64,000 nt of DNA from Verrucomicrobiota bacterium (GCA_038226425.1 JBBRQL010000001.1:495-64494), one strand, 5' to 3'; numbered from the stretch's first letter, positions 2,255 through 53,683 are shown. Numbers and translations: made by a program. The notes: generated from the sequence alone by a model not told the origin.

Positions 2255-3223
2255 ATGGATGACGGTTGGGAATCGGTCGGATGCGCCGCGTGCGGTCGGC
2301 GGGAATCGACGCCGGTGGTGGTCGTGCCGATGGCTGACGCGCCGGGCGGACGTTCGGCGGTCGTCCAGTGCTCCGGCTGCGGGTTGCGCCGGCTCGATCC
2401 GCGCCCGGGCGGGGCGATCATCGGACGCTACTACGCCGCGGCCGGCGGACAGGGCTACAACGCCTACGCCGGACGCCGGCGCAGCCCCTTGAAGCAGGCC
2501 GTCTGGGACGCTCTTCGTGACGGCTATTCGCGTCCTGCCGGACAAGCGTGGTGGAGCCGCCTGCTCAGCCCGCTGACCGGGGCCGTCGCCTCCTGGGCAT
2601 TCGACATCAACGTGCGCCTGGACCGGGCCGAAGGGCTTCGCGTGCTCGAGGTCGGCGCCGGGTTCGGCGACCTGCTGATCTATCTCCGGCAACGCGGTTG
2701 CGAGGTGCTCGGCACCGACCTGAGCGAATCGGGCGCGGCGATGGCGAAGGCTTCCGGCATCGAGGTCCGGCTCGGGCATCTGGCCGAGCTGAACTTGCCG
2801 GCCGGCGGCTTCGATATCGCGGTGATGTGCCACAGCCTGGAGCACGTCGCCGATCCCGGCGTCGAACTCGCCGAACTGGCGCGGCTGCTCCGGCCCGGCG
2901 GACGGTTGCACATCGCCGTGCCCAACGGCCGCGCGGTGCGCCTGGAGCACGACGGCACGCAGTGGATCCATCTGTCGGCGCCGCTACACCTTTGGTTCTA
3001 CGATGCGGCCACGCTCACGCGGCTGTTGGAGCTCCATGGCTTCCGCACGGTGGTCGGTCCGCGGACCACGACCATGCACCACGCGATGAACGCCTGGAGG
3101 TTCTACTTCTTCCGGCAGGGTCCGGTGGCGGCCACGCGGACGCTCCTCCGGTTCTTCCGCGGATCGATGCGCCGTCCCGACGGCGGCGATATCCTCCGCG
3201 TCGTGGCGGAGAAGGTCGGTTGA
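2255..3223 (+). CDS. class I SAM-dependent methyltransferase with N-terminal Cys4 zinc-ribbon-like motif
   Basis: 322-aa track ORF. It has CAACG...CSGCG, then VLEVGAGFGDL (SAM motif I) and DIAVMCHSLEHVADP...LLRPGGRL (Methyltransf_11/23-like). Confidence 0.85.
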   Translation: MDDGWESVGCAACGRRESTPVVVVPMADAPGGRSAVVQCSGCGLRRLDPRPGGAIIGRYYAAAGGQGYNAYAGRRRSPLKQAVWDALRDGYSRPAGQAWWSRLLSPLTGAVASWAFDINVRLDRAEGLRVLEVGAGFGDLLIYLRQRGCEVLGTDLSESGAAMAKASGIEVRLGHLAELNLPAGGFDIAVMCHSLEHVADPGVELAELARLLRPGGRLHIAVPNGRAVRLEHDGTQWIHLSAPLHLWFYDAATLTRLLELHGFRTVVGPRTTTMHHAMNAWRFYFFRQGPVAATRTLLRFFRGSMRRPDGGDILRVVAEKVG

Positions 3224-3360
3224 GCGCCCGAGGTCAATCGACACCGAAGTCTTGGACGAACCTCCCATCCTCTCGGTAATCCTCCGGCCTCAAACCCAAG
3301 TGTCCTATAGTGGGCCTCCGGACATGCTCGGCGATTTCGGCGCGTCCGTGGTGTCTCCGC

Positions 3361-3591
3361 TCAATCCTGAGCGATCGCCGCTGATCCCCCGGGCACGAAC
3401 GAGCCGGACACTTGTGCGGTCAGGGGGGCTCGAAGTTGGTCCTCTGAGAAGAACAGGTCGGCGTCCTGTGCTTCCATGAGCCATTCGATGATGTCTCGCG
3501 GGCGCCGCCACGTTCCCGCGGTCGGATCGGAGGCCTCCACTCCGAAGGTCTCTTCGATAGCCATCACGAGTTCGATCGCGTCGAGTCCCAT
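3361..3591 (-). CDS. small hypothetical protein resembling helices II-IV of an acyl carrier protein (Ala at the Ser attachment position)
   Basis: These are the last 76 codons of the 696-aa minus-strand track ORF, starting at ATG 3591. The sequence is MGLDAIELVMAIEETFGVEASDPTAG...PRDIIEWL, which follows the ACP pattern GxDS-LxxVELVMxxEExFGIEIPD....VGDLxxYI. It occupies an otherwise empty intergenic gap. The upstream remainder of the track ORF is antisense to the peptidase gene. Confidence 0.3.
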   Translation of the reverse strand: MGLDAIELVMAIEETFGVEASDPTAGTWRRPRDIIEWLMEAQDADLFFSEDQLRAPLTAQVSGSFVPGGSAAIAQD

Positions 3592-3594
3592 GGA

Positions 3595-5565
3595 ATGTTC
3601 CTGCCTTCGGCCGGCGTTTGGGTCAACTTTTCCGCCGTGAGAATCCTGCTGCTGCTCTGCCTCACCGTCCTTCCGACCGCCTTCGCCGCCGATTGGCGAC
3701 CGTTGTTCGACGGCAAGTCCTTGGCCGGTTGGACCCCGACGAAGTTCGCCGGTGCCGGCGACATCGAGGTGGTCGACGGCACGATGGTGCTCAACCAAGG
3801 CCTGCTCACCGGCGTGAGCTACACCAACGCGACGCCGACCGTGGATTACGAGGTCGAGCTCGAGGCGCGGCGGACGCAGGGCATCGACTTCTTCTGCGGG
3901 CTCACCTTCCCGGTGAAGGATTCCTTCGCGACCCTCGTGGTCGGCGGTTGGGGCGGCGCGGTCGTGGGCATCTCCAGCCTCGACGGCGACGACGCGGCGC
4001 ACAACTCGACGACCAGCTACCACCGCTTCAAGAACGGCCAATGGTACCGCATCCGCCTCGCGGTCACGGCGACGAACCTGAGCGCTTGGCTCGACGGCGA
4101 GCAGGTCGTGAACGCCGACATCCGCGGCAAGACCGTGGCGCTGCGGGCCGGCGAGATCGAGGAGAGCAAGCCCTTCGGCATCGCCAGCTGGAGCACCACC
4201 TCGGAACTGCGCGGCATCCGGCTGAGGAGACTCGGGGCGGCCGCCGAAGCTCCCGCCAAGACCGTCGCGTTGCCGGCGACATTGGTGGCATCGCTCGACC
4301 GCTTGGTCGCTGCGGCCACCAACTCGGACTTCGCCCATCGGCGTCTCGCGGAGATGTGCGACACCTTCGGGGCCCGCTTCACCGGCTCGACCCAGCTCGA
4401 AGCGGCGATCGACTGGGTGCTGGGCCAGATGAAGGCGGATGGACTGGACCAAGTGCGCGGCGAGCCGGTCATGGTCCCGCGCTGGATCCGCGGCGAGGAG
4501 TCCGCGGAGTTGCTGGAGCCGCGCCGCGAAGCGCTGCCGATGCTCGGGCTGGGCGGGAGCATCGCGACGCCGCGCGGCGGGCTGACGGCGCGCGTGCTGG
4601 TGGTGACGAACTTCACGGAGCTGAGCAACCGCGTCGCCGAGGCGAAGGGCCGGATCGTGGTGTTCGACGCCCCGTTCACCGACTACGGCGAGACCGTGCG
4701 GTTCCGCTGGGCCGGGGCGAGCGAGGCGGCAAAAGCGGGCGCGGTGGCCAGCATCGTCCGCAGCGTGACACCGTTCTCGCTGCGCACGCCGCACACCGGC
4801 GCGATGTCCTATGCCACGAACGCCCCGAAGATCCCGCACGCCGCGTTGGCCTCGGAGGACGTCGCCCGGCTCTCTCGTTGGCAGGCGCGCGGGATCGCGC
4901 CGGTCGTCCGCCTCCGCATGGCGGCGAAGACGCTGGCGGCGGGACCGTCGCGCAACGTGGTCGCCGAGCTGCGCGGACGCGAGAAGCCGGACGAGGTCGT
5001 GGTCATCGGCGGGCACATCGATTCGTGGGACGTGGGGCAGGGCGCCCAGGATGACGGCGGCGGATGCTTGGCGGCGTGGGAGGCCTTGCGCCTGATGAAG
5101 GAGCTCGGGCTCCGGCCGCGGCGGACCGTGCGCGTGGTGCTGTGGACGAACGAGGAGACCGGCGGCGCGGGCGCGAAGGCCTACCGGACCGCCCACCTCG
5201 GCGAGCTCAAGGACCACATCGCGGCCATCGAGGCCGACAGCGGCACGTTCGCGCCGGAAGGATTCGCCTTCACCGGCAGCACCAAGGCCGGCGAGGTCAT
5301 CCGGTCGATCGGCGGGTTCCTCGGTTCGCGGCTCGGCGCCGGAAAAGTGACGAACGGAGCGGGCGAGGCGGACATCGCGCCGTTGCTGGAGCACGGCGTG
5401 CCGAACCTCGGCCTGCGCGTCGATCGGGAGCGGTACTTCTGGTACCACCACACGGCGGCCGACACGGTGGACAAGGTGGCGCCGCGCGACCTGGCCCGCT
5501 GCACCGCCGCGATGGCGGTGATGGCCTACGCCTTGGCCGAGATGGAGGAGCCGCTCCCGCGGTGA
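3595..5565 (+). CDS. secreted DUF1080 (3-keto-disaccharide hydrolase-like) domain fused to M28 peptidase (carboxypeptidase Q-like)
   Basis: Signal-like VRILLLLCLTVLPTAFAADW. DUF1080 pattern WRPLFDGKSLAGWTP...VVDGTMVL. M28/CPQ motifs GGHIDSWDVGQGAQDDGGG, VLWTNEETGG, YFWYHHTAADTVDKV. The start may be slightly downstream, for example the GTG at VRILLL. Confidence 0.85.
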   Translation: MFLPSAGVWVNFSAVRILLLLCLTVLPTAFAADWRPLFDGKSLAGWTPTKFAGAGDIEVVDGTMVLNQGLLTGVSYTNATPTVDYEVELEARRTQGIDFFCGLTFPVKDSFATLVVGGWGGAVVGISSLDGDDAAHNSTTSYHRFKNGQWYRIRLAVTATNLSAWLDGEQVVNADIRGKTVALRAGEIEESKPFGIASWSTTSELRGIRLRRLGAAAEAPAKTVALPATLVASLDRLVAAATNSDFAHRRLAEMCDTFGARFTGSTQLEAAIDWVLGQMKADGLDQVRGEPVMVPRWIRGEESAELLEPRREALPMLGLGGSIATPRGGLTARVLVVTNFTELSNRVAEAKGRIVVFDAPFTDYGETVRFRWAGASEAAKAGAVASIVRSVTPFSLRTPHTGAMSYATNAPKIPHAALASEDVARLSRWQARGIAPVVRLRMAAKTLAAGPSRNVVAELRGREKPDEVVVIGGHIDSWDVGQGAQDDGGGCLAAWEALRLMKELGLRPRRTVRVVLWTNEETGGAGAKAYRTAHLGELKDHIAAIEADSGTFAPEGFAFTGSTKAGEVIRSIGGFLGSRLGAGKVTNGAGEADIAPLLEHGVPNLGLRVDRERYFWYHHTAADTVDKVAPRDLARCTAAMAVMAYALAEMEEPLPR

Positions 5566-5735
5566 AGCGGCCGGTCGCTAATCCTACCCGGGCTTCACTT
5601 AAGCTACTTTGATCGGCCCGGTCGCTTGACGCCCCCTAACCCCCCGGTAAGCTGCTTGACGAACGAACCGCCGCGTGTCCCGCCGATGTCATCGGTGTCG
5701 GCACGCGGCAAATTTTCGCAGCAAAGGCACATTTA

Positions 5736-7547
5736 ATGAGCGCAGTAGCAGACGCCCCGGCACCGGCCGGTGGCCAATCCAGATTCACCAAGATCAACGA
5801 GGCGGTCATCCGCATCGCAGGCAACTCGCAGGACGGCATCCAGGCCATCGGCGGTTTCTTGGCCCGGCTCGCGGGCCGGAGCGAGCAGGAGGTCATGACC
5901 TTCATGACCATCCCGTCCACGATCTCGGGCGGGCCGTCGATCTTCCAGGTCCGCATCGGATCCGGCGAGGTGCTCTCGGCCGGCGACGAGGCCGACCTGC
6001 TCCTGTGCTTCTACCAGCACAGCTACGAGGACCACATCAAGTCGCTCAAGCTCGGCGGCATCGTGCTCTACGACGCGGACCACGTGACGCCCAAGGCCGA
6101 GTGGCAGGAAAGCTACCGCCATGTCGGCGTGAACATCTCCGGCCTCACCGTCGAGGCCATCGGTGGAACCGGCCGCGACAAGGGCAAGAACATCTACGCC
6201 CTCGGCCTTCTGGCCAAGATCTACGACCTCGACATCACCAAGCTGAAGCGCCTTTTCAGCGAGCGCTTCGGCGGCAAGGACGCGTCGATCCTCGACAACG
6301 CCAACGCCTGCTTCGATTCCGGCTACAACCACAGCCTCGAGAACCTGCTCAAGAGCTACCAGTTCTATCCCGGCGCGGACAAAGGCGGCCAGCAGGTGGT
6401 GATGAACGGCAACGAGGCCCTTGCCTACGGCCTCATCGCCGCGGGCGTGCGGTTCGGCGCCGGCTATCCGATCACCCCGTGGTCCGACATCATGGAGCTG
6501 CTCCGCAAGGAGCTCCCGAAGTACGGCGGCAGCTTCATCCAGTGCGAGGACGAGATCGCCTCCGTCTCCATGGCGCTCGGCGCCAGCTGGGGCGGACGCG
6601 TGGCGGTGACCGGATCGTCCGGCCCGGGCATCTCGCTGAAGACCGAGGCGATCGGCTGGGCGTCGATGGCGGAGATGCCGTTGATCGTCGTGGACGTGCA
6701 GCGCGGCGGCCCGTCCACGGGCATGCCGACCAACGTCGAGCAATCCGACCTCAACATCGCGACCTTCGGCGGCCACGGCGACAGCCCGCGCGTCGTGCTC
6801 GCGCCGAGCGGCGTCGAGGACTGCTTCTACACCGCGATCGAGGCGGTGAACATCGCGCGCAAGTACAGCACGCCGGTCTTCATCCTCACCGACCAGGGCA
6901 TCGCCACGCGCATCGAGGCGTTCCCCGAGCCGAAGCTCGAGCAGGTCTGCCAGGACATCTCCCCCGATCTGACGCCGGTCGCCGACCACAAGCCCTACGA
7001 CCTGAGCGCTCCGGACGGCCTCACCCGCCATCTTGCGCCCGGCACCCGCGTCGCGAGCGGCAAGTATCCGGTCGTGACCGGTCTCGAGCACGACGAGCTC
7101 GGGCATCCGACCGGTTCGCCCAAGGTGCATCTCGCGATGATCGCCAAGCGCCGCAACAAGCTGCGCAAGCTCGCTTGGGAACTCCCGTTGCCCAAGGTCT
7201 ACGGGCCCGATGAGGGCCAGATCCTGCTTGTCGGATGGGGCAGCTCCGAGGGCCCGATGCGTGAGGCCGTGGACCGCGCCCGTGCGGTCGGCGACGCCAT
7301 CTCGGCGATCAACCTCAAGCACATCAACCCGCTGCCGAACGGCTTGGAGAAGATCTTCAAGGGCTTCAACCACGTGTTCGTGGTCGAGCTGAACGACGAG
7401 GGCCTCTATGGCTACGGTCAGCTCGGGGCCGTGCTCCGTGCCCGCTATGCGGACCCGAAGATCCAAGGCATCAACAAGGTCGACGGCCTCACCTGGAAGG
7501 TGAAGGAGATCCTCGACCGCGCCCGCTCGCTCGCCAGCCCCAAGTGA
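5736..7547 (+). CDS. korA: 2-oxoglutarate:ferredoxin oxidoreductase subunit alpha (fused gamma-alpha type)
   Basis: 603-aa ORF with MNGNEALAYGLIAAGVRFGAGYPITPWSDI, CEDEIASVSMALGASWGGRVAVTGSSGPGISL and VDVQRGGPSTGMPT. The adjacent gene encodes the beta subunit. Confidence 0.92.
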   Translation: MSAVADAPAPAGGQSRFTKINEAVIRIAGNSQDGIQAIGGFLARLAGRSEQEVMTFMTIPSTISGGPSIFQVRIGSGEVLSAGDEADLLLCFYQHSYEDHIKSLKLGGIVLYDADHVTPKAEWQESYRHVGVNISGLTVEAIGGTGRDKGKNIYALGLLAKIYDLDITKLKRLFSERFGGKDASILDNANACFDSGYNHSLENLLKSYQFYPGADKGGQQVVMNGNEALAYGLIAAGVRFGAGYPITPWSDIMELLRKELPKYGGSFIQCEDEIASVSMALGASWGGRVAVTGSSGPGISLKTEAIGWASMAEMPLIVVDVQRGGPSTGMPTNVEQSDLNIATFGGHGDSPRVVLAPSGVEDCFYTAIEAVNIARKYSTPVFILTDQGIATRIEAFPEPKLEQVCQDISPDLTPVADHKPYDLSAPDGLTRHLAPGTRVASGKYPVVTGLEHDELGHPTGSPKVHLAMIAKRRNKLRKLAWELPLPKVYGPDEGQILLVGWGSSEGPMREAVDRARAVGDAISAINLKHINPLPNGLEKIFKGFNHVFVVELNDEGLYGYGQLGAVLRARYADPKIQGINKVDGLTWKVKEILDRARSLASPK

Positions 7548-12285: not shown

Positions 12286-15200
12286 ATGTTGGCAAGCGGG
12301 AACTCGCGGCGGGGACCCGGTGCGCCGCCGCGCTTCGTTTGGTTCGTGCCGGCTTGCGCTCCGTGGCATGCTCCGCGGGTGCCTCCGGCCCATGGACCCG
12401 TCACACCGCCCGCTCCGGCCGTCGCCCGGGATGCCGTGCGGTCGTTGGCGTCGCCGGTGATGGTGTTGCGCGGGGTCGGACCCGAACGCGTCTTCCAGCT
12501 CGGCCGGCTCGGTATCCACACCGTCGGCGACCTGTTGCTGCACGCGCCGCGGCGATACGAGGACCGCCGGAAGTTCATCACCATCCGCGAGCTCGAGCTG
12601 GGCAAGAGCGCGACGGTCTTCGGCAAGATCATCGCCGCCGGGGTGAAGCGTTACCGCGGCGGCGCGAGGTCGGTGTACGAGTTCGTGATCGAGGACGGTT
12701 CGGCACGGCTGCATTGCCGATGGTGGAACCTGCCGTTCCTGGAACGCATCTTCGCGGTGGGCGACGAGGTCATGGTCTTCGGGAAACCGAACCTCCTGAA
12801 GCCTCGCACCATGGACCATCCCGAGACCGAGAAGGTCGAGGGCGGCGACGACGTCACGGTCCACATCAACCGCGTGGTGCCCGTCTATCCGCTCACGGAA
12901 GGACTGCCCCAGCGATCGGTGCGCAGCTTCCTATGGCGCGCGGTCGAGGAGTTCGCGGGCCAGGTGGGTGAGCCTGAACCTAGGCTGGTGCCGGTCGGAG
13001 CAGGGGGGCAGGGGAGCAGGGGGGCAGGGGAGAGCGTCCCCGTTTCTCCCCTGCCCCCTTTCTCCCCTGCTTTCTTCCCGACCCGTGCCGACGCCGTCCG
13101 CGTGCTGCATTTCCCGGCCGAGATCGCGGATGCCGAACGTGCGCGCCGTCGCTTGGCGCTCGACGAGTTCGTGGCGCTGCAGCTGGAGATCCAGCGGCGT
13201 CGGCAGAACCTGGAGCGCAACGCGCGGGCATTCCCGTGCGGCGGCGACAACCGGTTGATGAAACCGTTCCTCGCCGCGCTCGGGTTCAAGCTGACGGGAG
13301 CCCAGGTGCGGGTCCTGCGTGAGCTGCGGGCCGACCTCGCCGGCCCGGTGCCGATGCGGCGGCTGCTCCAGGGCGATGTCGGATCGGGCAAGACCGTGGT
13401 CGCCGCCGGCGCGGCGCTGATGGCGCTGGAGAGCGGATGCGACGTGGCGCTGATGGCCCCGACCGAGATCCTCGCGGCGCAGCTCCACCGCAACCTTGCC
13501 GGGTGGCTCGGACCGCTCGGCATCGCGGTCGACCTGCGCACGGGCTCCCACAGACAACGTGCTGCCAGCGTCCCGCTGGCAGCGACGAAACCGGGGCCTT
13601 CCCGGATGTCCACGACGGAATTCGCGTCGACGATGGCAGGCGAACCCTGCCGGCAAGATGCCGGCAGCACATTGTGTGATCCGTTCTTCGATCGTGGTTC
13701 CGACATCGAACGGTACCTCGGCTGGCTACCGCATTGGCGGCAGGCGGAGAAACTCTACTTCGTCACCTTCCGGCTCGAGGATTCGGTGGACCAACAGACC
13801 CTGAAGCTTTGGCAGCAGGAACGCGAGGTGTGGGAGCGCCATCATCCCAAGCCGTGGGATGACGCGGTCTGGCGGGAGCGCCAGGAACGGTTCACCCGCC
13901 GCAGCGAGGAACAGCTCGACGCCGGGCATGGTTCTTGTGCGTTGAGGCGGCCTGATGTCGGAGAGATCGTCGTGTCCGCATTGCGGCAGTTCGATGGCGA
14001 CAGGTACCAGCTGGGGGATTTCGTCGTGATGCCGAACCACGTCCATGTGCTGGTGCGGCCCGCGCCCGGACACGGGCTCGACCAGATCCTTCACTCATGG
14101 AAATCGTTCACCTCGAAAGCAGCCAACCGGAGCCTTGGACGGACCGGTGCGTTTTGGCGCGAGGAATCGTTCGACTATCTGGTGCGCAGCGAGGCGCAAT
14201 ATCAACGCTTCCGGGACTACATCTCGGAGAATCCGCGCAAAGCCTGCCTGCCCGGAGATGCCTATCGGCTTGGTGCCGGGAGTTTCACGCTTCCGTGGCC
14301 GGAACAACGTGCTGCCAGCGTCCCGCTGGCAGCGACGAAACAAGGGACTTCCCGTATGTCCATGACGGACCTCGCGTTGATGGTGCCAGGCGAGCCCTGC
14401 CGGCAAGATGCCGGCAGCACATTGGTGGTCGGGACCCATGCGTTGCTGGAGGACTCGGTCGGTCTCGGGAAGCTCGGGCTGGTCATCATCGACGAGCAGC
14501 ACAAGTTCGGCGTCGCCCAGCGCGAGACGTTGCTGCGGAAAGGCCGCGACGGCGGACGGTTCCCGCATCTGCTCGTGATGACCGCCACGCCCATCCCGCG
14601 GACGCTCGGGCTCACGCTCTACGGCGACCTGGACGTCACCTTGCTCGACGAGGTGCCGGCCGGACGCGGACGCATCCGCACGCACGTGCGCGATGCGGCG
14701 GCGCTGCCGAAGGTCTGGCAGTTCGTCCGCGCGGAGCTGGAGAAAGGTCGCCAAGCGTATGTCGTCTATCCTCGCGTGAGCGAATCCGACCGCGACGAGG
14801 TCAAGGCGGTCACGAAGGAGTTCGCCCGGGTCCAGCAAGAGCTCGCGCCGCACGGCGTGGGTCTGCTGCACGGACAGCTCCGCGCCGAGGAGAAGGACCG
14901 TGTCATGGCCGCGTTCCGGGCAGGGACGACGAAGGTCCTGGTCGCGACCAGCGTGATCGAGGTGGGCGTGGACGTGCCGAACGCCACGGTGATGCTCATC
15001 GAGGACGCCGAGCAGTTCGGGCTCGCGCAGCTCCACCAGTTGCGCGGCCGCATCGGCCGCGGCGCGCACGAATCGCACTGCATCCTCGTGGCGGAACAGA
15101 AGACCGATGCCGCGAAGGCGCGCCTGAAGGTGCTCGCGGAGACGACCGACGGGTTCGCGTTGGCCGAGGCGGACCTGCGCCTGCGCGGACCGGGCGAACT

Positions 15201-15315
15201 CATCGGCCGCCAGCAGAGCGGCGTCCCGGAGTTCCGCTTCGGCGACCTGCGCGGCGACCGCGACCTGGTCGAGCTGGCGCGCTCGCTGGTCCGGACGCAT
15301 CTGCGCGGGAAGTAG
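12286..15315 (+). CDS. recG: ATP-dependent DNA helicase RecG carrying two in-frame insertions (palindromic element; REPIN-RAYT-REPIN unit); functional status uncertain
   Basis: RecG N-terminus LRGVGPERVFQLGRLGIHTVGDLLLHAPRRYEDRR. Wedge region is present, followed by FKLTGAQVRVLREL, GDVGSGKT (motif I) and MAPTEILAAQ (Ia). After the insert come VVGTHALL, IIDEQHKFG (II), MTATPIPRT, VATSVIEVGVDVPNA and HQLRGRIGRG. The track start at 12073 overlaps the upstream gene. ATG 12286 is the first plausible start, and the true start could be as late as about 12379. Confidence 0.85.
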   Translation: MLASGNSRRGPGAPPRFVWFVPACAPWHAPRVPPAHGPVTPPAPAVARDAVRSLASPVMVLRGVGPERVFQLGRLGIHTVGDLLLHAPRRYEDRRKFITIRELELGKSATVFGKIIAAGVKRYRGGARSVYEFVIEDGSARLHCRWWNLPFLERIFAVGDEVMVFGKPNLLKPRTMDHPETEKVEGGDDVTVHINRVVPVYPLTEGLPQRSVRSFLWRAVEEFAGQVGEPEPRLVPVGAGGQGSRGAGESVPVSPLPPFSPAFFPTRADAVRVLHFPAEIADAERARRRLALDEFVALQLEIQRRRQNLERNARAFPCGGDNRLMKPFLAALGFKLTGAQVRVLRELRADLAGPVPMRRLLQGDVGSGKTVVAAGAALMALESGCDVALMAPTEILAAQLHRNLAGWLGPLGIAVDLRTGSHRQRAASVPLAATKPGPSRMSTTEFASTMAGEPCRQDAGSTLCDPFFDRGSDIERYLGWLPHWRQAEKLYFVTFRLEDSVDQQTLKLWQQEREVWERHHPKPWDDAVWRERQERFTRRSEEQLDAGHGSCALRRPDVGEIVVSALRQFDGDRYQLGDFVVMPNHVHVLVRPAPGHGLDQILHSWKSFTSKAANRSLGRTGAFWREESFDYLVRSEAQYQRFRDYISENPRKACLPGDAYRLGAGSFTLPWPEQRAASVPLAATKQGTSRMSMTDLALMVPGEPCRQDAGSTLVVGTHALLEDSVGLGKLGLVIIDEQHKFGVAQRETLLRKGRDGGRFPHLLVMTATPIPRTLGLTLYGDLDVTLLDEVPAGRGRIRTHVRDAAALPKVWQFVRAELEKGRQAYVVYPRVSESDRDEVKAVTKEFARVQQELAPHGVGLLHGQLRAEEKDRVMAAFRAGTTKVLVATSVIEVGVDVPNATVMLIEDAEQFGLAQLHQLRGRIGRGAHESHCILVAEQKTDAAKARLKVLAETTDGFALAEADLRLRGPGELIGRQQSGVPEFRFGDLRGDRDLVELARSLVRTHLRGK
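12999..13071. repeat. G-rich/C-rich palindromic element inside recG (tandem 16-mer x2 plus inverted copy)
   Basis: agcaggggggcagggg occurs at 12999-13014 and again at 13015-13030. A perfect 13-bp stem ggggcaggggaga (13021-13033) / tctcccctgcccc (13045-13057) has an 11-nt loop. The element is translated in frame as GAGGQGSRGAGESVPVSPLPPFSPAF. Confidence 0.75.
13554..13674 (+). repeat. REPIN-like repeat copy 1 (two hairpins in inverted orientation)
   Basis: Hairpin A is gctgccagcg-tcc-cgctggcagc (13561-13583, 10-bp stem). Hairpin B is ctgccggca-aga-tgccggcag (13647-13667, 9-bp stem). The termini gtgctgcc.../...ggcagcac are inverted relative to each other. Confidence 0.8.
14304..14424 (+). repeat. 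REPIN-like repeat copy 2
   Basis: Same length as copy 1 with no indels. By hand alignment there are 12 mismatches, all in the central spacer. The first 37 nt and last 36 nt, which include both hairpins, are identical. Confidence 0.8.
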
Positions 15316-23255: not shown

Positions 23256-26012
23256 ATGACCAAAGTGTCCAAACTCCTCCGCGTGTTCCTGCTGTGCGCC
23301 TGCGTCCAAGGCGCGTCGGGGCAGGCCCCGAGCCAGATCGCTGAAGAAGAAGCCATCCGGCGCCAGGAAAAGTCGATCCTGTTGCGCAGCACGCTTGAGG
23401 CAGCTCAGACGGCGCAGAAACAGAACGATCTCAAGACCGCTGCCAAGCTCTATGAAGATGCGTGGTCGTTGACCGAGGTGCTCGGGGCGAACGTGGAGGC
23501 CGAACGCCGCCAGACCGTGGCCGGTCTTTCCGGATCGCGCCTTCAGCTGGCCATCGCCGCGCAACGCGCCGGCGATGCGCGTGAAGCGGACACCCAGGTC
23601 ACCCGCGCGCTGAAGGTCGATCCGAACAACACGGTCGCCAAGAGCTTCAAGAAGGACAACGACCGCCGTCTGGCCGACCTTCAGGGCAGATTGCCGAGCG
23701 AAGCCGTCTTGGCCCGTGCAGCGGACCACAGCACCAACATGGTCAAGGTCGCGTCCTCGGTCCAGGACGGCGTGGTGCTGTACCAGATGAACAAACTGGA
23801 CGAGGCCGAGGAGGTCTTCCAGAAGGCGATCAAACAACAACCTGAAAACCAGGCCGCCTATTACTACTTGAACCTGATCCGCGAGGCGAAGTTCACCCGT
23901 GCGGCCAAGAACAAGTCGCTCACCACCAAGGACCGGCTGGTCGAGGTCGAACAAGCTTGGGAAACGCCCAAGTCGAACCTCCCCATCGCCAACCCGTGGG
24001 CCAAGACCAATCTGATCCACACCGGCAACGGACGCCAGATCATTGCGAGCAAGCTCGACCGGATCATCCTCAACGAGGTCAAGTTCGACGGTCTTCCATT
24101 GACCGAGGTCGTCAAGTACCTCGAAGAACAGGCCAAAGCCCGCGACCCCGAGAAGCGTGGTGTCAATTTCCTCATCAGCTCCAGCATCGACGTCCCGACC
24201 CCGCAGGCGACCCAGCAGTTCGACGCGACCGGCCAACCGGTAGCTTCGGCTCCGGTCGAACCGCTTGACCTCGGCAATGTGGTCATCCGCCTCAACCCCG
24301 GTCTGCACAACGTCCGGTTGGCCGATGCATTGGACGCCGTGACCAAGGTCGCTGAAAAACCGCTCAAGATATCGATCGAGGACTACGCGGTCATCTTCAC
24401 GCAGCGCCTGCCGGAGCCCGTCCAGTTGCACGCACGGCAATTCCGTGTCGATCCGAACACGTTCATGCAAGGGCTCCAGAGCGTTTCAGGCATCGACCTT
24501 GGTACGACCTTCCAGAGCACCGGTGGCGGCGGCGGCGGTGGTGGCGGCGGCGGCGGTGGTGGCGCCCAAGGCGGCCAAGGTGGTGGCATCTTCAATGTTC
24601 CCCGCGTCGATGTGAGTTCCAGCAGCAGCCAAGGTGGCGGTGGCGGAGCGGGTGGGCAGGGTGGACAAGGGATCACCGGTGTCACACGCACCAACTTGAT
24701 GGCCAATGTCCAAGTGATGGTTCGCCAATTTTTTGCGGCGGCCGGCGTCAACTTCCCGCAGACAGCCGTCCCCGGCCAAGGCGGGGCCGGTGGTGGCGGC
24801 GGTTTCGGAGGCGGCGCGCAGCAACAGCAGTTCGGTCTCAACGGCCAGGCCCAAGAAGTCGATGCGAAGGCGCTGTTCTTCAATGACCGGACCGGCATCT
24901 TGTTTGTGAGGGCGACTTTGTCCGACCTCGATATCATCGAGAAGGCCATCCAGGCGTTGAACATCGCTCCGGCCAACATCGAGATCGAGGCACGTTTCGC
25001 GGAGGTCAGCCAGACTGACAGCAAGGCGCTCGGGTTCCAATGGTTCTTGGGAAATTTCCTGATGGGCGGTGGCAAAGTAGGTCTTAGCGGTGGAACCGCT
25101 CCTTCGTATCAAGGGCAAGCGTCTGCGGCCAACCCCGACGGGGTGTTCCCGCAGTACGGGAACATCTTGCCTTCGGGCAGTGACCAGAACGTCACCGCCG
25201 GCCTTCGGAACATCGATGGAAATCAAAGTGCCATCCCGACCGTGGCGACGCTGAGCGGCATCCTTACCGACCCGCAGTTCCGCGCGGTGATCCAAGCACT
25301 CGACCAGCGTGATGGCGTCGAGTTCCTCATCGCACCGAAACTGGTCACCCAGAGCGGGCGTCAAGCCCATATCGCGGTGAACGATGCCCGCACGGTCGTC
25401 GTGGGTGTCGGTCAGAACCAACAAGGTTCTGGCGGCGGTACCGGAAACACTGCCAACGGTGTCAACGGCAACACGGGCGGCGGCGGCGCCGTCGCAACCG
25501 CGATCCAATACCAGACCACGGTGTTCCCGTTCGGTCCGACCTTGGATGTCGTCCCGTACGTCTCTTCCGATGAGTCGTCCATCCAGATGACCATCATCCC
25601 GAGCCTCACGGAATTCGTCGGCTACGATGATCCGGGCGGTTTCGTGCCGCAGGCCCAGTCCGTCGCCGGGAACACGGTCGGTACCTCGTTGAAGGCGGTC
25701 TTGCCGCTCCCTCGTATCCGGGTTCGCCAAGTCGTGACCAGTGCCACGGTCTGGGACGGCCAGACGGTCGTCTTGGGCGGCCTCATCTCCGAAGATGTGA
25801 AAAAATCGCGGGACAAGGTGCCGGTCCTGGGTGACATCCCGGTGCTGGGACGCCTCTTCCGCAGCGAGAACTCGCTGAACATCAAGAAGAACCTCATCAT
25901 CTTCGTGACGCCGACGATCCTCGATCCGTCCGGCCATCGCGTGAACGATCCGCGTAGCCTCCCGTTCGATCCGAACTCCTTCCCGGCCTTGGCTCCGACC
26001 GCGATCAAATGA
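23256..26012 (+). CDS. pilQ: outer-membrane secretin (PilQ/GspD family, Amuc_1098-like) with N-terminal TPR region and Gly-rich linkers
   Basis: Signal LLRVFLLCACVQGASGQA and a TPR-like N-terminus. STN-like LDRIILNEVKFDGLPLTEVVKYLEEQ. Secretin core ...VTSATVWDGQTVVLGGLISEDVKKSRDKVPVLGDIPVLGRLFRSENSLNIKKNLIIFVTPTIL. Confidence 0.9.
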   Translation: MTKVSKLLRVFLLCACVQGASGQAPSQIAEEEAIRRQEKSILLRSTLEAAQTAQKQNDLKTAAKLYEDAWSLTEVLGANVEAERRQTVAGLSGSRLQLAIAAQRAGDAREADTQVTRALKVDPNNTVAKSFKKDNDRRLADLQGRLPSEAVLARAADHSTNMVKVASSVQDGVVLYQMNKLDEAEEVFQKAIKQQPENQAAYYYLNLIREAKFTRAAKNKSLTTKDRLVEVEQAWETPKSNLPIANPWAKTNLIHTGNGRQIIASKLDRIILNEVKFDGLPLTEVVKYLEEQAKARDPEKRGVNFLISSSIDVPTPQATQQFDATGQPVASAPVEPLDLGNVVIRLNPGLHNVRLADALDAVTKVAEKPLKISIEDYAVIFTQRLPEPVQLHARQFRVDPNTFMQGLQSVSGIDLGTTFQSTGGGGGGGGGGGGGGAQGGQGGGIFNVPRVDVSSSSSQGGGGGAGGQGGQGITGVTRTNLMANVQVMVRQFFAAAGVNFPQTAVPGQGGAGGGGGFGGGAQQQQFGLNGQAQEVDAKALFFNDRTGILFVRATLSDLDIIEKAIQALNIAPANIEIEARFAEVSQTDSKALGFQWFLGNFLMGGGKVGLSGGTAPSYQGQASAANPDGVFPQYGNILPSGSDQNVTAGLRNIDGNQSAIPTVATLSGILTDPQFRAVIQALDQRDGVEFLIAPKLVTQSGRQAHIAVNDARTVVVGVGQNQQGSGGGTGNTANGVNGNTGGGGAVATAIQYQTTVFPFGPTLDVVPYVSSDESSIQMTIIPSLTEFVGYDDPGGFVPQAQSVAGNTVGTSLKAVLPLPRIRVRQVVTSATVWDGQTVVLGGLISEDVKKSRDKVPVLGDIPVLGRLFRSENSLNIKKNLIIFVTPTILDPSGHRVNDPRSLPFDPNSFPALAPTAIK

Positions 26013-27612: not shown

Positions 27613-29160
27613 ATGTCGCGTCATTTTCTAGCGTTGTTCATCGCTTCGTTGGTGTTCATCGCACCAAGGCAAGTTCATGGTTTTTCTCTCCTAGGAGCAC
27701 GGCCAAGCTGGCAGACGCCCGAAGTCGGGCTCGCGCCACCGTACCCGTCCGGAGTTGGGGGGGTCATGTATCTTGGCGAAGGATATCGCTTCAACATGCC
27801 GGTGTTGACCTACGCCTACGATGCCTCGTTTCTCCGTTATTTCGGGGCGAACGGAGTCGCAGCCATCGAATCCGCGATGAAGGTATTGAACGACCTTCCA
27901 GCGGCCGATAGCATGAGTGCCACGTTGGAGGAGTTTCCAACGACCACATTGCGCCACAACGCCACAGCAAGCGCTCTGTCGATCATCGATCTCAAGACGA
28001 CGACACTGTCGTTCATGCTAGAGCAACTCGCTGTCGCGGCTCCGGAAAACTATGTCTGGTCCATCCGCGCACATTTCACGGACCCGGCCGGTATCGACCA
28101 CTTTTCCGTCATCAATCCGAATTATGATCCGGTCACGTTGACTCAGTCATCCTTCATCAACGGATATCAGTATACCTACCAGATCCGCCAGACTGATACA
28201 GCGGAGTGGAAAACCGCCAATTTCCCGGTCGACCCCTTGGCGCCTAGTTTCACTACGGTGGCGAATTATGGACAAGCGTTCTTCGCGAGGGGCCGAGGTG
28301 GTTCGTTGGCGTTCGGTCCTGGTTCCTATTTCCCAGCATTGACCCGTGAGGACGTGGCAGCATTCCGATACATGCTGAGCACGACAAATTACGCAGTGGA
28401 ATCCCTCCTGCCTGATGTGATCGCTTCGACAGGTGGTGCTCTTGGAGTGAGCGGTGGAACTTCGGTCGGCAGCGGTGGTCTTGGCGGCGGTGGAGGTGGT
28501 GGCTTTTCGGGAGGGTTTGGAGCACCGTGGAGTCCTGCCTTCTCGGTTGCAGTCGGTGGAGCTGGGACTTCGAATCCTCCTTGGTCGATCGTGGCCGCCA
28601 GCACCAATGTCGCGACCAATGCGGTGGTGGTCACGGTGACCGGTGGTTTGCCTTCGGTCGTGAACGCCCTTCGGCCCGGTGTCGGCAAATATAGTTTTGT
28701 CCAGATCGGTTACGATTCGATTCTTGGTGCGGCGACCCGTCCCTACTTGGTGACTTGGCTTGATCGATATGTGACCAACAGTGTGACCCGGGTACAAGCG
28801 CTTGCCCGACAGATCACGACCCCCGACATCCTCTTTTCGGCCGCCGATCTTGGGGTGATCGATCATCTTCCGATTCTCAGTTCAATTACGGCTGATGGGT
28901 TTGTGAACGATTCCGCGCTGAACAGGGTCAACGGGGGCGGATTCGGAGAACTGGCCGGTCCCGGCATCATCACCTCCGGCAAGGAGATCACCTTCAGCAA
29001 GATCGGGCGCTACTACATCAACACCGAGGAGACCACCGAAGCCGACGGCTTTCTTTTCGGTGGATGGGGCTCGTTCGACGGCTCTACCAACGCGCCTGTG
29101 TTGTATCCCAGTGGAACCTCGATCAAGGCGATCGAGAAGCTGGTGCTCGGCGGACGGTGA
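27613..29160 (+). CDS. secreted hypothetical protein with internal poly-Gly tract
   Basis: Start ATG 27613 (MSRHFLALFIASLVFIAPRQVHG, signal peptide) lies 8 nt after the upstream stop. It contains GSGGLGGGGGGGFSGGFG. No family was recognised. GC is clearly lower than the flanks. Confidence 0.75.
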   Translation: MSRHFLALFIASLVFIAPRQVHGFSLLGARPSWQTPEVGLAPPYPSGVGGVMYLGEGYRFNMPVLTYAYDASFLRYFGANGVAAIESAMKVLNDLPAADSMSATLEEFPTTTLRHNATASALSIIDLKTTTLSFMLEQLAVAAPENYVWSIRAHFTDPAGIDHFSVINPNYDPVTLTQSSFINGYQYTYQIRQTDTAEWKTANFPVDPLAPSFTTVANYGQAFFARGRGGSLAFGPGSYFPALTREDVAAFRYMLSTTNYAVESLLPDVIASTGGALGVSGGTSVGSGGLGGGGGGGFSGGFGAPWSPAFSVAVGGAGTSNPPWSIVAASTNVATNAVVVTVTGGLPSVVNALRPGVGKYSFVQIGYDSILGAATRPYLVTWLDRYVTNSVTRVQALARQITTPDILFSAADLGVIDHLPILSSITADGFVNDSALNRVNGGGFGELAGPGIITSGKEITFSKIGRYYINTEETTEADGFLFGGWGSFDGSTNAPVLYPSGTSIKAIEKLVLGGR

Positions 29161-52492: not shown

Positions 52493-53683
52493 ATGCTCGC
52501 CCTCGAGACCGCCCGCGAGCGCCTGCTTTCCGCCCTCGTCGCGCTCCCAGCCGAGTCCGTGCTCGTCGCGGCTGCCGATGGCCGCGTCGCTGCGTCCGAC
52601 TTAGCCACCCCCAGCGACCTGCCGCCCTTCGACAACTCCGCGATGGACGGCTACGCCGTGCGCGCCGCGGACACCGCGACCGTCCCAGTGCCGCTCCAGG
52701 TGGTCGGTCGGTCGGCCGCGGGCGACGGTTTCGCCGGCACCGTCGGCCCGGGCGGATGCGTCCGCGTCTTCACCGGCGCGCCGATGCCCGCGGGCACTGA
52801 TGCCGTGGTGATGCAAGAAGACGTCGACGTCGACCCTGCCGACCCGACGCGTGTGGTCGTCCGCGAAGGCGTGAAGCCGTGGGAGGACGTCCGGTTCCGG
52901 GGCGAGGACGTCCGGAGAGGCGCGCGGATCGTCGCCGCCGGCACAGTGCTCGGGCCGCAGCAGATCGCTCTGCTCGGCGCAGCCGGGTTTGCCGAGGTGA
53001 CGGTCCATCGCGCTCCGCGGGTGGTGGTCCTGGCGAACGGGTCCGAGCTCCGTCCGCCCGGCGCGCCGCTCGGGCCGGGCGAGATCCACGAGAGCAACAC
53101 CGCCATGCTCGCCGCGCTGGTCCGCCGCGCCGGCGGCGTCCCGGTGGCGGTGCGGTGCGTGCCGGACGATGCGGCCATGCTCCGGTCGGCTTTGGCCGAG
53201 GCCTTCGCGGTGGCGGACGTGGTGGTCACCGTGGGCGGCGCATCGGTGGGCGAGCACGACCTCGTGAAGGCGGAGTTCACCGCGCTCGGCGGCGAGCTCG
53301 AGTTCTGGAGATTGGCGCTCAAGCCCGGGAAACCGTTCTTCTTCGGTCGCCACGAGGGAAAGTTCCTCTTCGGGCTGCCGGGCAACCCGGTTTCGGCATT
53401 CGTCACCTCGGTGCTGCTCGTGCTGCCGGCGTTGCGCCGGCTGCAAGGGATCGCCGACCACGGTCCGCCCTCGACTCCGGGCACGTTGGACGGCCCGCTC
53501 TCAAACCCCGATGGACGCCGGCATTTTGTCCGCGTCGCGACCGATGCGGACGGCAGGGTCCGCCCCAGCGGAGCGCAGGCGTCGCATCTGCTCGGATCGC
53601 TCGCGGCGGCCGACGGGTTGGTCGACGTGCCGCCGCGCACGACGTGGGCGACCGGGACGGCGGTCCGCGTGATCCGTTGGTGA
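52493..53683 (+). CDS. moeA: molybdopterin molybdenumtransferase
   Basis: PPFDNSAMDGYAVR, GAPMPAGTDAVVMQE, EIHESN, GGASVGEHD and KPGKPFFFG...LPGNPVSA. AAGGAG lies 5 nt upstream of the ATG. Confidence 0.9.
   Translation: MLALETARERLLSALVALPAESVLVAAADGRVAASDLATPSDLPPFDNSAMDGYAVRAADTATVPVPLQVVGRSAAGDGFAGTVGPGGCVRVFTGAPMPAGTDAVVMQEDVDVDPADPTRVVVREGVKPWEDVRFRGEDVRRGARIVAAGTVLGPQQIALLGAAGFAEVTVHRAPRVVVLANGSELRPPGAPLGPGEIHESNTAMLAALVRRAGGVPVAVRCVPDDAAMLRSALAEAFAVADVVVTVGGASVGEHDLVKAEFTALGGELEFWRLALKPGKPFFFGRHEGKFLFGLPGNPVSAFVTSVLLVLPALRRLQGIADHGPPSTPGTLDGPLSNPDGRRHFVRVATDADGRVRPSGAQASHLLGSLAAADGLVDVPPRTTWATGTAVRVIRW

Follow-up and report, generated by a model that had tools for sequence, protein, structure and literature searches.

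A REPIN-flanked RAYT transposase in frame within recG of a Verrucomicrobiota bacterium, and related insertions in other genes

REP-associated tyrosine transposases (RAYTs) have been described as free-standing genes in intergenic clusters of repetitive extragenic palindromic (REP) sequences; examples are TnpA_REP/RayT of E. coli (structure 4ER8), the RAYTs of Pseudomonas and class 2 of the TnpA_Y1 enzymes (PMC6006769). Here we report on a 64,000-nucleotide stretch of DNA from a Verrucomicrobiota bacterium (GCA_038226425.1 JBBRQL010000001.1:495-64494; hereafter the window, whose coordinates are used unless another contig is named), in which the recG reading frame at 12286-15315 on the + strand passes through an insert composed, in order, of a 121-nucleotide REPIN (a doublet of inverted REPs), a full-length RAYT and a second 121-nucleotide REPIN, all in the frame of recG. 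We consider it probable that this insert is a REPIN-RAYT-REPIN cassette (a 'REPtron') carried as a translated, stop-free, in-frame passenger in a variable surface linker of RecG lobe 1; that the feature itself is real and recurrent is nearly certain.

The window RAYT shares with the described REPIN-RAYT systems the Y1 HUH fold, the HUH and YIxxNP motifs, and flanks made of inverted REP doublets. In the table of Quentin et al. 2018 (PMC6006769) it fits the row for subclass 2.7 (~209 amino acids, NHVH, YIxxNP), and its tyrosine motif matches the YIxxNP form tabulated there for RAYT subclasses; long proteins had been taken out of that survey. Unlike the described systems, the window RAYT has no start or stop codon of its own, any translation of it would be as an inner part of the RecG polypeptide, and different cassettes are found here at the same site in near-identical hosts. 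In the work of Bertels and Rainey, RAYTs are reportedly usually single-copy and vertically inherited.

Shorter palindromic inserts within genes have been described. Di Nocera et al. 2013 (PMC3733652) found intragenic GTAG REPs to be most numerous in Opitutus terrae, a verrucomicrobium, and in excess in genes for replication and repair; recG is not among the decorated ORFs (open reading frames) tabulated in that paper. As cited there, the Rickettsia palindromic elements (Ogata et al. 2000) are the classic in-frame palindromic inserts. Both are in-frame palindromic repeats in host genes which are functional, and the recG alleles with one to three REPINs and the pheT REPINs described below are the same phenomenon. 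Those inserts, however, are short repeats only (8-82 residues), whereas the window's insert contains a transposase gene of ~209 codons, and the foot of its REPs is CAAYGTG rather than GTAG or CGTC.

Three further systems invite comparison. Like inteins, the insert is a selfish coding element lying in frame in a conserved gene, of the kind often concerned with DNA metabolism, and would be translated with the host protein; in both cases fixed sites recur, and related genomes include some with an empty allele and some with an occupied one. Unlike inteins, it has no Hint domain and is without the splice residues of either junction (Cys or Ser on the N-terminal side, His-Asn followed by Cys/Ser/Thr on the C-terminal side), and its enzyme is an HUH single-stranded DNA nuclease rather than a homing endonuclease. 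With elements of the IS200/IS605 type it shares the Y1 HUH TnpA fold and subterminal hairpins that bound the element, but it is flanked by directly oriented REPIN doublets and does not have a left end distinct from its right end, tnpB is absent, and the gene is not autonomous and is nested in frame, neither disrupting its target nor lying between genes. An HUH nuclease and a helicase are joined in one polypeptide in TraI relaxases, rolling-circle Rep proteins and Helitron RepHel; in these an SF1 or SF3 (superfamily 1 or 3) helicase follows the HUH domain along the polypeptide, and the two act together. In the window, by contrast, the helicase belongs to SF2 and has its lobe 1 interrupted by the HUH domain, which is attached through linkers of predicted disorder, and the same cassette occurs in proteins which are not helicases. 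A full-text literature search, outside whose scope lay most subscription journals, found no published RAYT as an in-frame, start-less and stop-less insert of a host gene and no fixed-site recurrence of one. Because no description of an in-frame nested RAYT was found, we classify the locus as a RAYT/REPIN system with a new lifestyle, which has an intein-like logic of persistence but is not an intein.

Structure of the recG insert

The frame is open on the + strand from 12073 to the stop codon at 15313-15315 and, from the ATG at 12286, specifies 1009 residues, assigned to recG with the insert included from the ORF list, Pfam, NCBIfam and synteny. The start codon is either this ATG or the one at 12460, at which the database protein for the same product (P0001, 951 residues) begins; the upstream start is favoured because the sequence ...RSLASPV preceding 12460 is conserved in relatives. 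Pfam recognized RecG_wedge, DEAD, Helicase_C and RecG_dom3_C in the 1009-residue product, together with Y1_Tnp at residues 574-648, and the whole protein scored above the NCBIfam RecG equivalog cut-off (NF008168, 741 against 718 bits). The wedge domain, SF2 motifs I-VI and the RecG C-terminal domain are all present, and 1GM5, the RecG of T. maritima, matched the window RecG with an E-value of 2e-133.

The alignment to 1GM5 falls into two blocks. The N-terminal RecG part (12286-13553, +; alignment A1) comprises the wedge, lobe 1 through motif I (GDVGSGKT) and motif Ia (MAPTEILA), and the strand ...AVDLRTGSH; it aligned with 1GM5 residues 120-453 and was modelled by AlphaFold with pLDDT (predicted local distance difference test) values mostly between 80 and 95. 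The C-terminal part (14425-15315, +) extends from the strand VVGTHALL through motif II (DEQH) to motif VI, domain 3 and the stop codon; it aligned with residues 473-760 and carries the Pfam Helicase_C and RecG_dom3_C domains. In the numbering of the 951-residue product, residues 211-362 and 654-944 align to 1GM5 chain residues 303-453 and 473-760, respectively, and about 291 insert residues stand in for a 19-residue segment (454-472). The short helix which this segment places between motif Ia and the (I/V)(V/I)GTHA strand is absent from the window RecG in this alignment. A first-pass annotation made from the sequence of the window had proposed RecG similarity on both sides of the insert, resuming at VVGTHALL, and had found the K/R-rich segment after motif Ia unrecognizable; the two alignment blocks and the Pfam domains agree with both statements.

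The insert comprises about 291 codons (13552-14424), and its repeat-bounded part spans 871 nucleotides (13554-14424); since 871 does not divide by three, the exact ends of the insert are uncertain by one or two nucleotides. It is free of stop codons in the recG frame only, the remaining five frames having two to seven, and only 6 of 2000 dinucleotide shuffles of the 871 nucleotides (0.3%) were open in that frame. The 871 bp had been described as lying in frame without a stop, which is right as to the stop and inexact as to the length; the accompanying caution that an open frame is weak evidence applies to the REPINs, which are almost stop-free in all six frames and whose openness is therefore uninformative. 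The element has, as had been proposed, no stop codon ahead of that of recG. Its in-frame ATG codons, however, are not restricted to the left repeat as first stated: one lies at 14029-14031 (in VVMPNH), and three codons of the right repeat are also ATG.

The two 121-nucleotide flanking repeats noticed at first pass (13554-13674 and 14304-14424; direct-repeat family D1) are 90% identical, lie 750 nucleotides apart and have the anatomy of REPINs, each with two terminal inverted REP hairpins and a DNA fold z-score of about -5.3. The left REPIN (13554-13674, +; fold -39.7 kcal/mol, z -5.4) is translated as ...RQRAASVPLAATKPGPSRMSTTEFASTMAGEPCRQDAGSTL, a product given pLDDT values below 50 in both AlphaFold models. 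Its first hairpin (13558-13587, +) reads CGTGCTGCCAGCG tcc CGCTGGCAGCGACG, and the second, inverted relative to the first (13647-13667, - strand), reads CTGCCGGCA aga TGCCGGCAG, followed by the foot CACATTG. The right REPIN (14304-14424, +) has its hairpins at 14308-14337 and 14397-14417 and is translated as ...QRAASVPLAATKQGTSRMSMTDLALMVPGEPCRQDAGSTL. Between the two REPINs the hairpins are 100% identical and all 12 differences are central, leaving exact identity only over ~30-38 nucleotides at the ends. Both are intragenic, in-frame palindromic inserts in a protein of which relatives have empty alleles. The peptides predicted to span the insert junctions of the fusion are ...DLRTGSHRQRAASVPLAATK and ...QDAGSTLVVGTHALLEDSVGLGK. 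The same REP pattern was found several times per genome in many Verrucomicrobiota MAGs (metagenome-assembled genomes; genome-wide scan, at least 117 stretches). Elsewhere in the window, a solitary REP-like hairpin with one mismatch to the REP pattern, GTGCTGCCGGC gttgc GCCGGCTG, is present at 53420-53443 (+).

The RAYT segment (13675-14303, +) contains 209 codons. The HUH motif is the His-Val-His at 14038-14046 (+) in VVMPNHVHVLV, of which PNHVHVLV occupies 14032-14055, and the predicted catalytic tyrosine is encoded at 14218-14220 (+) in FRDYISENP; both histidines (H163 and H165) and the tyrosine (Y223) are invariant across the 89 aligned RAYT homologues of alignment A3. The Y1/HUH transposase-like domain proposed at first pass was recovered in a Pfam search, in which the insert alone scored 27.5 bits against Y1_Tnp (PF01797; cut-off 23); the best NCBIfam family was NF047646, 'REP-associated tyrosine transposase', at 63 bits, compared with only 23 bits for the IS200 transposase. 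In the AlphaFold model of the insert, the RAYT core has pLDDT values above 90, and its top Foldseek match was 4ER8, the E. coli RAYT with a REP hairpin (E 6e-6), followed by the ISDra2 and IS608 transposases. From sequence and fold the RAYT looks complete and functional, and activity is plausible.

A homologue search with the RAYT alone returned 2014 proteins, mostly free-standing and of 200-300 amino acids, from Verrucomicrobiota, Planctomycetota, Hydrogenedentes and others. Free-standing members have a Met and a few residues ahead of PF(F/L)xP..LPHW at the N-terminal end and a stop soon after ...GxY.LG; the window segment CDPFFDR...LGAGSF covers this full length without a start or stop, there being no start codon where free-standing members begin and no stop ahead of that of recG. 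The GC contents of the three codon positions within the RAYT (0.68/0.45/0.75) indicate that the recG frame is also its coding frame. Relative to the recG flanks (GC 0.69-0.70, third-position GC (GC3) 0.87-0.91), the RAYT segment is lower in both measures (0.62 and 0.75), which suggests that the cassette is of foreign origin, either from a lower-GC source or incompletely ameliorated. A free-standing RAYT 60% identical to that of the window (P0122; contig L007, 6001-6771) has a glcD-like gene on one side and a glcF-like gene on the other, the stop and start codons overlapping, and its C-terminus, ...QRAASVPLA, is the translation of the window REP. Several short free-standing RAYTs (e.g. P0130, P0135, P0147 and P0192) are labelled 'type I restriction enzyme R subunit' by JGI, a label likely propagated from reference restriction-modification proteins which contain a nested RAYT domain.

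The fusion was modelled in two AlphaFold predictions, from alignments A4 and A3, which replaced a single combined alignment; that alignment (A2, MAFFT, of fusion, RecG-only and RAYT-only sequences) was dropped since the ends of its RAYT-only rows were scattered onto the RecG termini. The full-length model, a prediction which the first-pass annotation had called for, has confident RecG domains and a confident RAYT core, retains both flanking strands (357-360 and 655-658) and has pLDDT values below 50 for residues 368-429 and 613-649. Each REPIN encodes a stretch of ~40 residues predicted to be disordered; from these low-confidence stretches, the RAYT would hang from lobe 1 on two flexible, REPIN-encoded tethers beside a RecG core that is predicted to be intact. 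No interface between RecG and RAYT was predicted in the full-length model.

Other routes of expression were also considered. No promoter-like site for the RAYT was found within the cassette. Intein-type splicing was rejected: Pfam detected no Hint domain, and the junctions, GSH followed by RQRAAS and GSTL followed by VVGTH, have no splice-junction residues. As nothing points to protein splicing, the insert presumably stays in the mature protein. An RNA-level element was likewise rejected, Rfam having given sub-threshold chance matches only, with no ribozyme or intron. Reinitiation at the ATG in the REP loop (CAAGATGCC) would, in the window, yield neither the RAYT frame nor that of recG; this codon is used as a start in the split priA of contig L006, described below.

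Allelic forms and recurrence at the recG site

RecGs at least 91% identical to that of the window were compared over the segment from LRT(G/A)(S/N)H to (L/V)VGTHAL, which supplied the empty site that the first-pass annotation had proposed to look for among close relatives. Five forms were found, all in frame: a Pro/Gly-rich linker of 26-28 residues without a REPIN (P0007-P0012), one REPIN (P0005 and P0006), two REPINs (P0003 and P0004), three REPINs (P0002), and the REPIN-RAYT-REPIN of the window. Relatives with RecGs 91-94% identical to the window's have no RAYT. The recG DNA of L002 (two REPINs) is 97-98% identical to that of L003 (linker only), and that of the window is 92-94% identical to each; the order of genes around recG is the same in the window, L002, L003 and L004. 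In the REPIN and RAYT alleles the 26-residue ancestral linker (PGAEPGPPSGELRLGARPPESGAVGR) is gone, the insert standing in its place (L003 10994-11197, L002 10994-11359, window 13453-14445). By eye only, the linker DNA has a weak similarity to the centre of the REPIN.

Measured between the window and its relatives, dN/dS (nonsynonymous over synonymous divergence) was 0.10-0.15 upstream of the insert and 0.03-0.04 downstream of it at a dS of about 0.23, between-lineage values which blend the time before and after insertion; these low ratios indicate strong purifying selection on the recG sequence at either side of the insert.

A related RAYT is present at the same RecG site in P0013, P0014 and P0016 (61-66% overall identity), one such protein being named 'RecG-like helicase/REP element-mobilizing transposase RayT' by JGI. 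A second RAYT subfamily (RRLPHFERPWAKY...MPDHVHVL...) occupies the site in P0244 (Terrimicrobiaceae), P0247 and P0249. The RecG::RAYT architecture was found in at least seven RecG lineages other than that of the window, in independent NCBI, JGI, ENA and Logan assemblies, with one allele present on several contigs. In four cassettes with three different hairpin sequences the right junction is nucleotide-identical, the REP foot ...CAC-N-YTG being followed directly by the xVGTHA codons; a junction so precise and so recurrent suggests target specificity of the IS200/IS605 kind. The RecG-nested RAYTs are mutual nearest relatives (58-66% identity), the next being the PriA-nested P0121 and the free-standing P0122 (56-60%).

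Two comparisons bear on how the nested state behaves over time. In P0014 and P0016, compared at the protein level only, the RecG parts are 97% and 96% identical up to both junctions, the RAYTs are 61% identical and the REPIN-coded flanks are unrelated; divergent RAYTs in near-identical RecGs indicate that different cassettes have come to lie at the same site in near-identical hosts. One cassette is common to five RecG::RAYT proteins that come from different samples; the share of variable sites among them is 6% for RecG, 14% for the RAYT and 22-35% for the REPIN-coded flanks, which indicates that the nested state is stably inherited and that the RAYT is constrained relative to its flanks. In P0013, the flanking repeats are decayed. 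One further protein, P0339 (825 amino acids, NCBI), is a RecG with a canonical linker between motifs Ia and II in which a RAYT cassette lies in helicase lobe 2, between repeated VEHPPSVA... flanks.

Nested RAYTs in other genes

The search with the RAYT alone missed known fusions, the window protein among them, and was not used to count nested copies; these were counted by an exhaustive phmmer search with the junction region as query and by a scan of metagenome contigs at the DNA level, which is independent of gene calling. The phmmer search returned dozens of proteins of 500-1400 amino acids with an internal RAYT of this family. Their hosts, as identified by Pfam, include proteins of replication and repair (RecG, DinG, the exonuclease VII large subunit XseA, the C-terminal part of DnaE and an SF1 helicase), other housekeeping proteins (LeuRS, CarB, the CCA-adding enzyme and MqnA) and proteins of defence (the CARF-adenosine deaminase Cad1, HsdS, HsdR and many restriction-modification enzymes of the Eco57I/MmeI type). 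Of 80 RAYT loci sampled in the DNA-level scan, 32 were open for at least 100 amino acids on both sides, at GC contents of 0.35-0.66, with hosts that include PriA, CarB, DinG (3), LeuRS (3), ValRS (L204), AlaRS (L200), ClpB (L168, with the cassette between the two AAA modules), Cad1 and methyltransferases. Seven of the 80 were nested in CarB, all at one position. No out-of-frame nested RAYT was seen among 46 free-standing metagenome loci, only RAYTs downstream of complete genes, in a blastx comparison that was weak in covering already-known hosts only.

Most nested copies have direct peptide repeats as flanks, ending in ...(R/K)(Q/R)DA(G/A)(S/A)T(L), which are translated REPINs of related families. 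The HUH motif was kept in 28/29 and 30/32 nested copies and the tyrosine motif in 25/29 and 30/32, about the same retention as in free-standing RAYTs. The closest metagenome relatives of the window RAYT (49-62% identity) are those of JGI contigs L125-L128, in which a full-length PriA (3'BD, DEAD, Cys-rich region, Helicase_C and PriA_C) carries the cassette in frame just before motif I, with a right junction of ...DAGSTF followed by LLHGVTGSGKTE. In another MAG (L006, ENA/NCBI, 5850-7000), priA holds a REPIN-RAYT-REPIN whose REPs are of the window's family, and the gene is split into separate ORFs, the RAYT ORF (P0121) and the downstream helicase ORF both beginning at an ATG in the REP hairpin loop (CAGGATGCC); the fragmentation of the rest of this priA could be due to long-read indel errors or to decay. 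In L137 and L139, the carB flanks differ at a pS (proportion of synonymous differences) of 0.09, and the RAYTs at a pS of 0.74 and a pN (its nonsynonymous counterpart) of 0.21; from this contrast, drawn at the DNA level, the two cassettes do not go back to a single one inherited in place, and near-identical genomes thus hold different cassettes at one CarB site. The RAYT has been under purifying selection.

In another Verrucomicrobiia MAG (L052), two in-frame REP or REPIN inserts of the window's REP family (QRAAGVPPA...CQQDAGST) lie within 3103-5727, which from our own reading of the translation rather than a domain search we take to be pheT, the gene for the beta subunit of phenylalanyl-tRNA synthetase. 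The lengths of open frames around REP matches are not interpretable on their own in GC-rich DNA. In P0333 (L149 3696-6641), a Zn-dependent alcohol dehydrogenase and a GFO/IDH/MocA oxidoreductase, both complete, are fused into one frame by a RAYT cassette; the cassette can therefore also bridge two genes.

Explanations for the nested cassette

Under the passenger reading, which we hold to be the probable one, ribosomes that start at recG would translate through the cassette and yield a working RecG bearing a RAYT domain on two flexible, REPIN-encoded linkers; recG translation would be the only evident route by which the RAYT is made. Read-through with retention of RecG function is likely. The RAYT would act on single-stranded REP hairpins, as the E. 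coli enzyme does, and this action could account for the series of REPIN copy numbers and for the turnover of cassettes at the recG site. Nesting may shield the element, in that a frameshift, a nonsense mutation or an imprecise deletion would ruin a useful host gene; its persistence would then follow the logic of inteins, minus protein splicing. The first-pass annotation had offered a choice between a very recent insertion and a tolerated or selected fusion. Recurrence in distant RecGs, persistence and purifying selection favour toleration and speak against a very recent event.

Several points weigh against this reading. The canonical helix between motif Ia and VGTHA is missing, but close relatives free of RAYT are also without it and have a Pro/Gly-rich linker; in RAYT-free Verrucomicrobiota RecGs the segment is degenerate, Pro/Gly-rich and 24-58 residues long. 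Independent cassettes replace the ancestral linker at the same two boundaries, and no mechanism for this was found. The RAYT score of 63 bits lies below the 80-bit NCBIfam equivalog cut-off, and the REPs of the 64-kb window amount to the four flanking hairpins and one degenerate REP-like hairpin. Every sequence comes from a metagenome-derived assembly, the evidence from the source genome covers the window, so that a second recG may exist elsewhere, and the dN/dS values span the mixed period noted above. Finally, we infer read-through translation, the stability of the 1009-residue protein and its RecG activity.

A selected, functional fusion, in which the HUH nuclease and RecG cooperate in the manner of relaxases, Rep proteins or Helitron RepHel, with RecG for example bringing the RAYT to stalled forks that expose single-stranded REP hairpins, appears unlikely. 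Enzymes of the IS200/IS605 type act on lagging-strand single-stranded DNA, the RecG-nested RAYTs cluster together with the PriA-nested P0121 next to them (alongside the free-standing P0122), the closest metagenome RAYTs (L125-L128) are all in PriA, the other fork-restart helicase, and DinG, too, carries such a cassette. RAYTs of this family and of like design, however, are found in LeuRS, ValRS, AlaRS, CarB, ClpB, XseA, the CCA-adding enzyme, MqnA and methyltransferases; the RAYT is absent at 91-94% RecG identity, its distribution being patchy rather than that of a co-inherited unit; the linkers are predicted to be disordered, with no predicted interface; and cassettes are swapped between near-identical hosts, as a mobile element would be and a fixed domain would not. 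The analogy to relaxases and Rep-helicases drawn at first pass found no backing: cassettes lie in non-helicase hosts, and close relatives have no RAYT.

We regard as distinctly unlikely an inert passenger, namely an inactive RAYT whose frame is kept open by selection on recG alone, so that the cassette is no more than a long tolerated linker. The host frame would by itself guard the insert from nonsense and frameshift mutations, the repeats flanking the RAYT of P0013 have decayed, the window holds few REPINs, and RAYT evolution is about twice as fast as that of RecG. Such a passenger would not be expected to keep HUH, Tyr and LPHW in nearly all nested copies at a rate like that of free-standing RAYTs, and pN is far below pS between cassettes. 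Nor does it sit well with a RAYT which varies 2-2.5 times less than the adjoining REPIN-coded peptides, with flanking REP hairpins which are 100% identical in spite of the 12 central differences, or with a REPIN number (0-3) which is polymorphic in near-identical genomes.

That a recent insertion has disrupted recG and made it in effect a pseudogene, whose frame is open just as a consequence of high GC, we judge very unlikely. A GC content of 0.63-0.70 does make open frames cheaper, REPINs are stop-free in nearly all frames, the RAYT is lower in GC and GC3 than recG, and the closest relatives are without a RAYT. Set against this are the 0.3% of composition-matched shuffles that were open, the agreement of frame at both junctions and the missing RAYT stop; the same architecture in at least seven other RecG lineages and in many genes at GC contents of 0.35-0.66; and the persistence of one RecG::RAYT lineage across samples together with the dN/dS of 0.03-0.04 in the C-terminal half of recG.

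An assembly artefact is barely credible. In that case a recG with two REPINs would have had a RAYT locus wrongly joined in between them during short-read assembly, and REPINs are indeed repeats and the data metagenome assemblies. The two REPINs, however, share exact sequence only at their ends (~30-38 nucleotides), with 12 differences in the centre, an open frame that continues that of recG is not what one would expect of a chimera, and RecG::RAYT recurs in independent NCBI, JGI, ENA and Logan assemblies with one allele on several contigs.

Beyond the passenger reading of the window locus, we give about even chances to a broader proposal, that this REPIN-RAYT family constitutes a distinct class of mobile element which lives in the frames of conserved genes, brings no translation signals but its own disordered linkers, is expressed as an internal domain of the host protein, and homes to, or is replaced at, nucleotide-precise sites; as part of that proposal, such sites would be the point between LRTGS and xVGTHAL in RecG, the position just before motif I in PriA, and a single position in CarB. 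The usual view of RAYTs and REPINs is of extragenic, single-copy and vertically inherited systems, a picture that a host-translated RAYT at fixed sites in essential genes would change. The coexistence of empty alleles, alleles with one to three REPINs and RAYT alleles in near-identical genomes makes REPIN and RAYT mobility directly testable, and a 290-residue insert in a RecA-like helicase lobe is a natural experiment in tolerance of large-domain insertion. Proteins with nested RAYTs are at present labelled as odd fusions or discarded, which is a matter for annotation. HUH domains serve as DNA-tagging modules, and an insertion-tolerant HUH cassette with built-in linkers may be useful in protein engineering.

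Elsewhere in the window, GGC/GGT-rich triplet repeats at 24510-24820 and 28465-28505 probably code for glycine-rich stretches.

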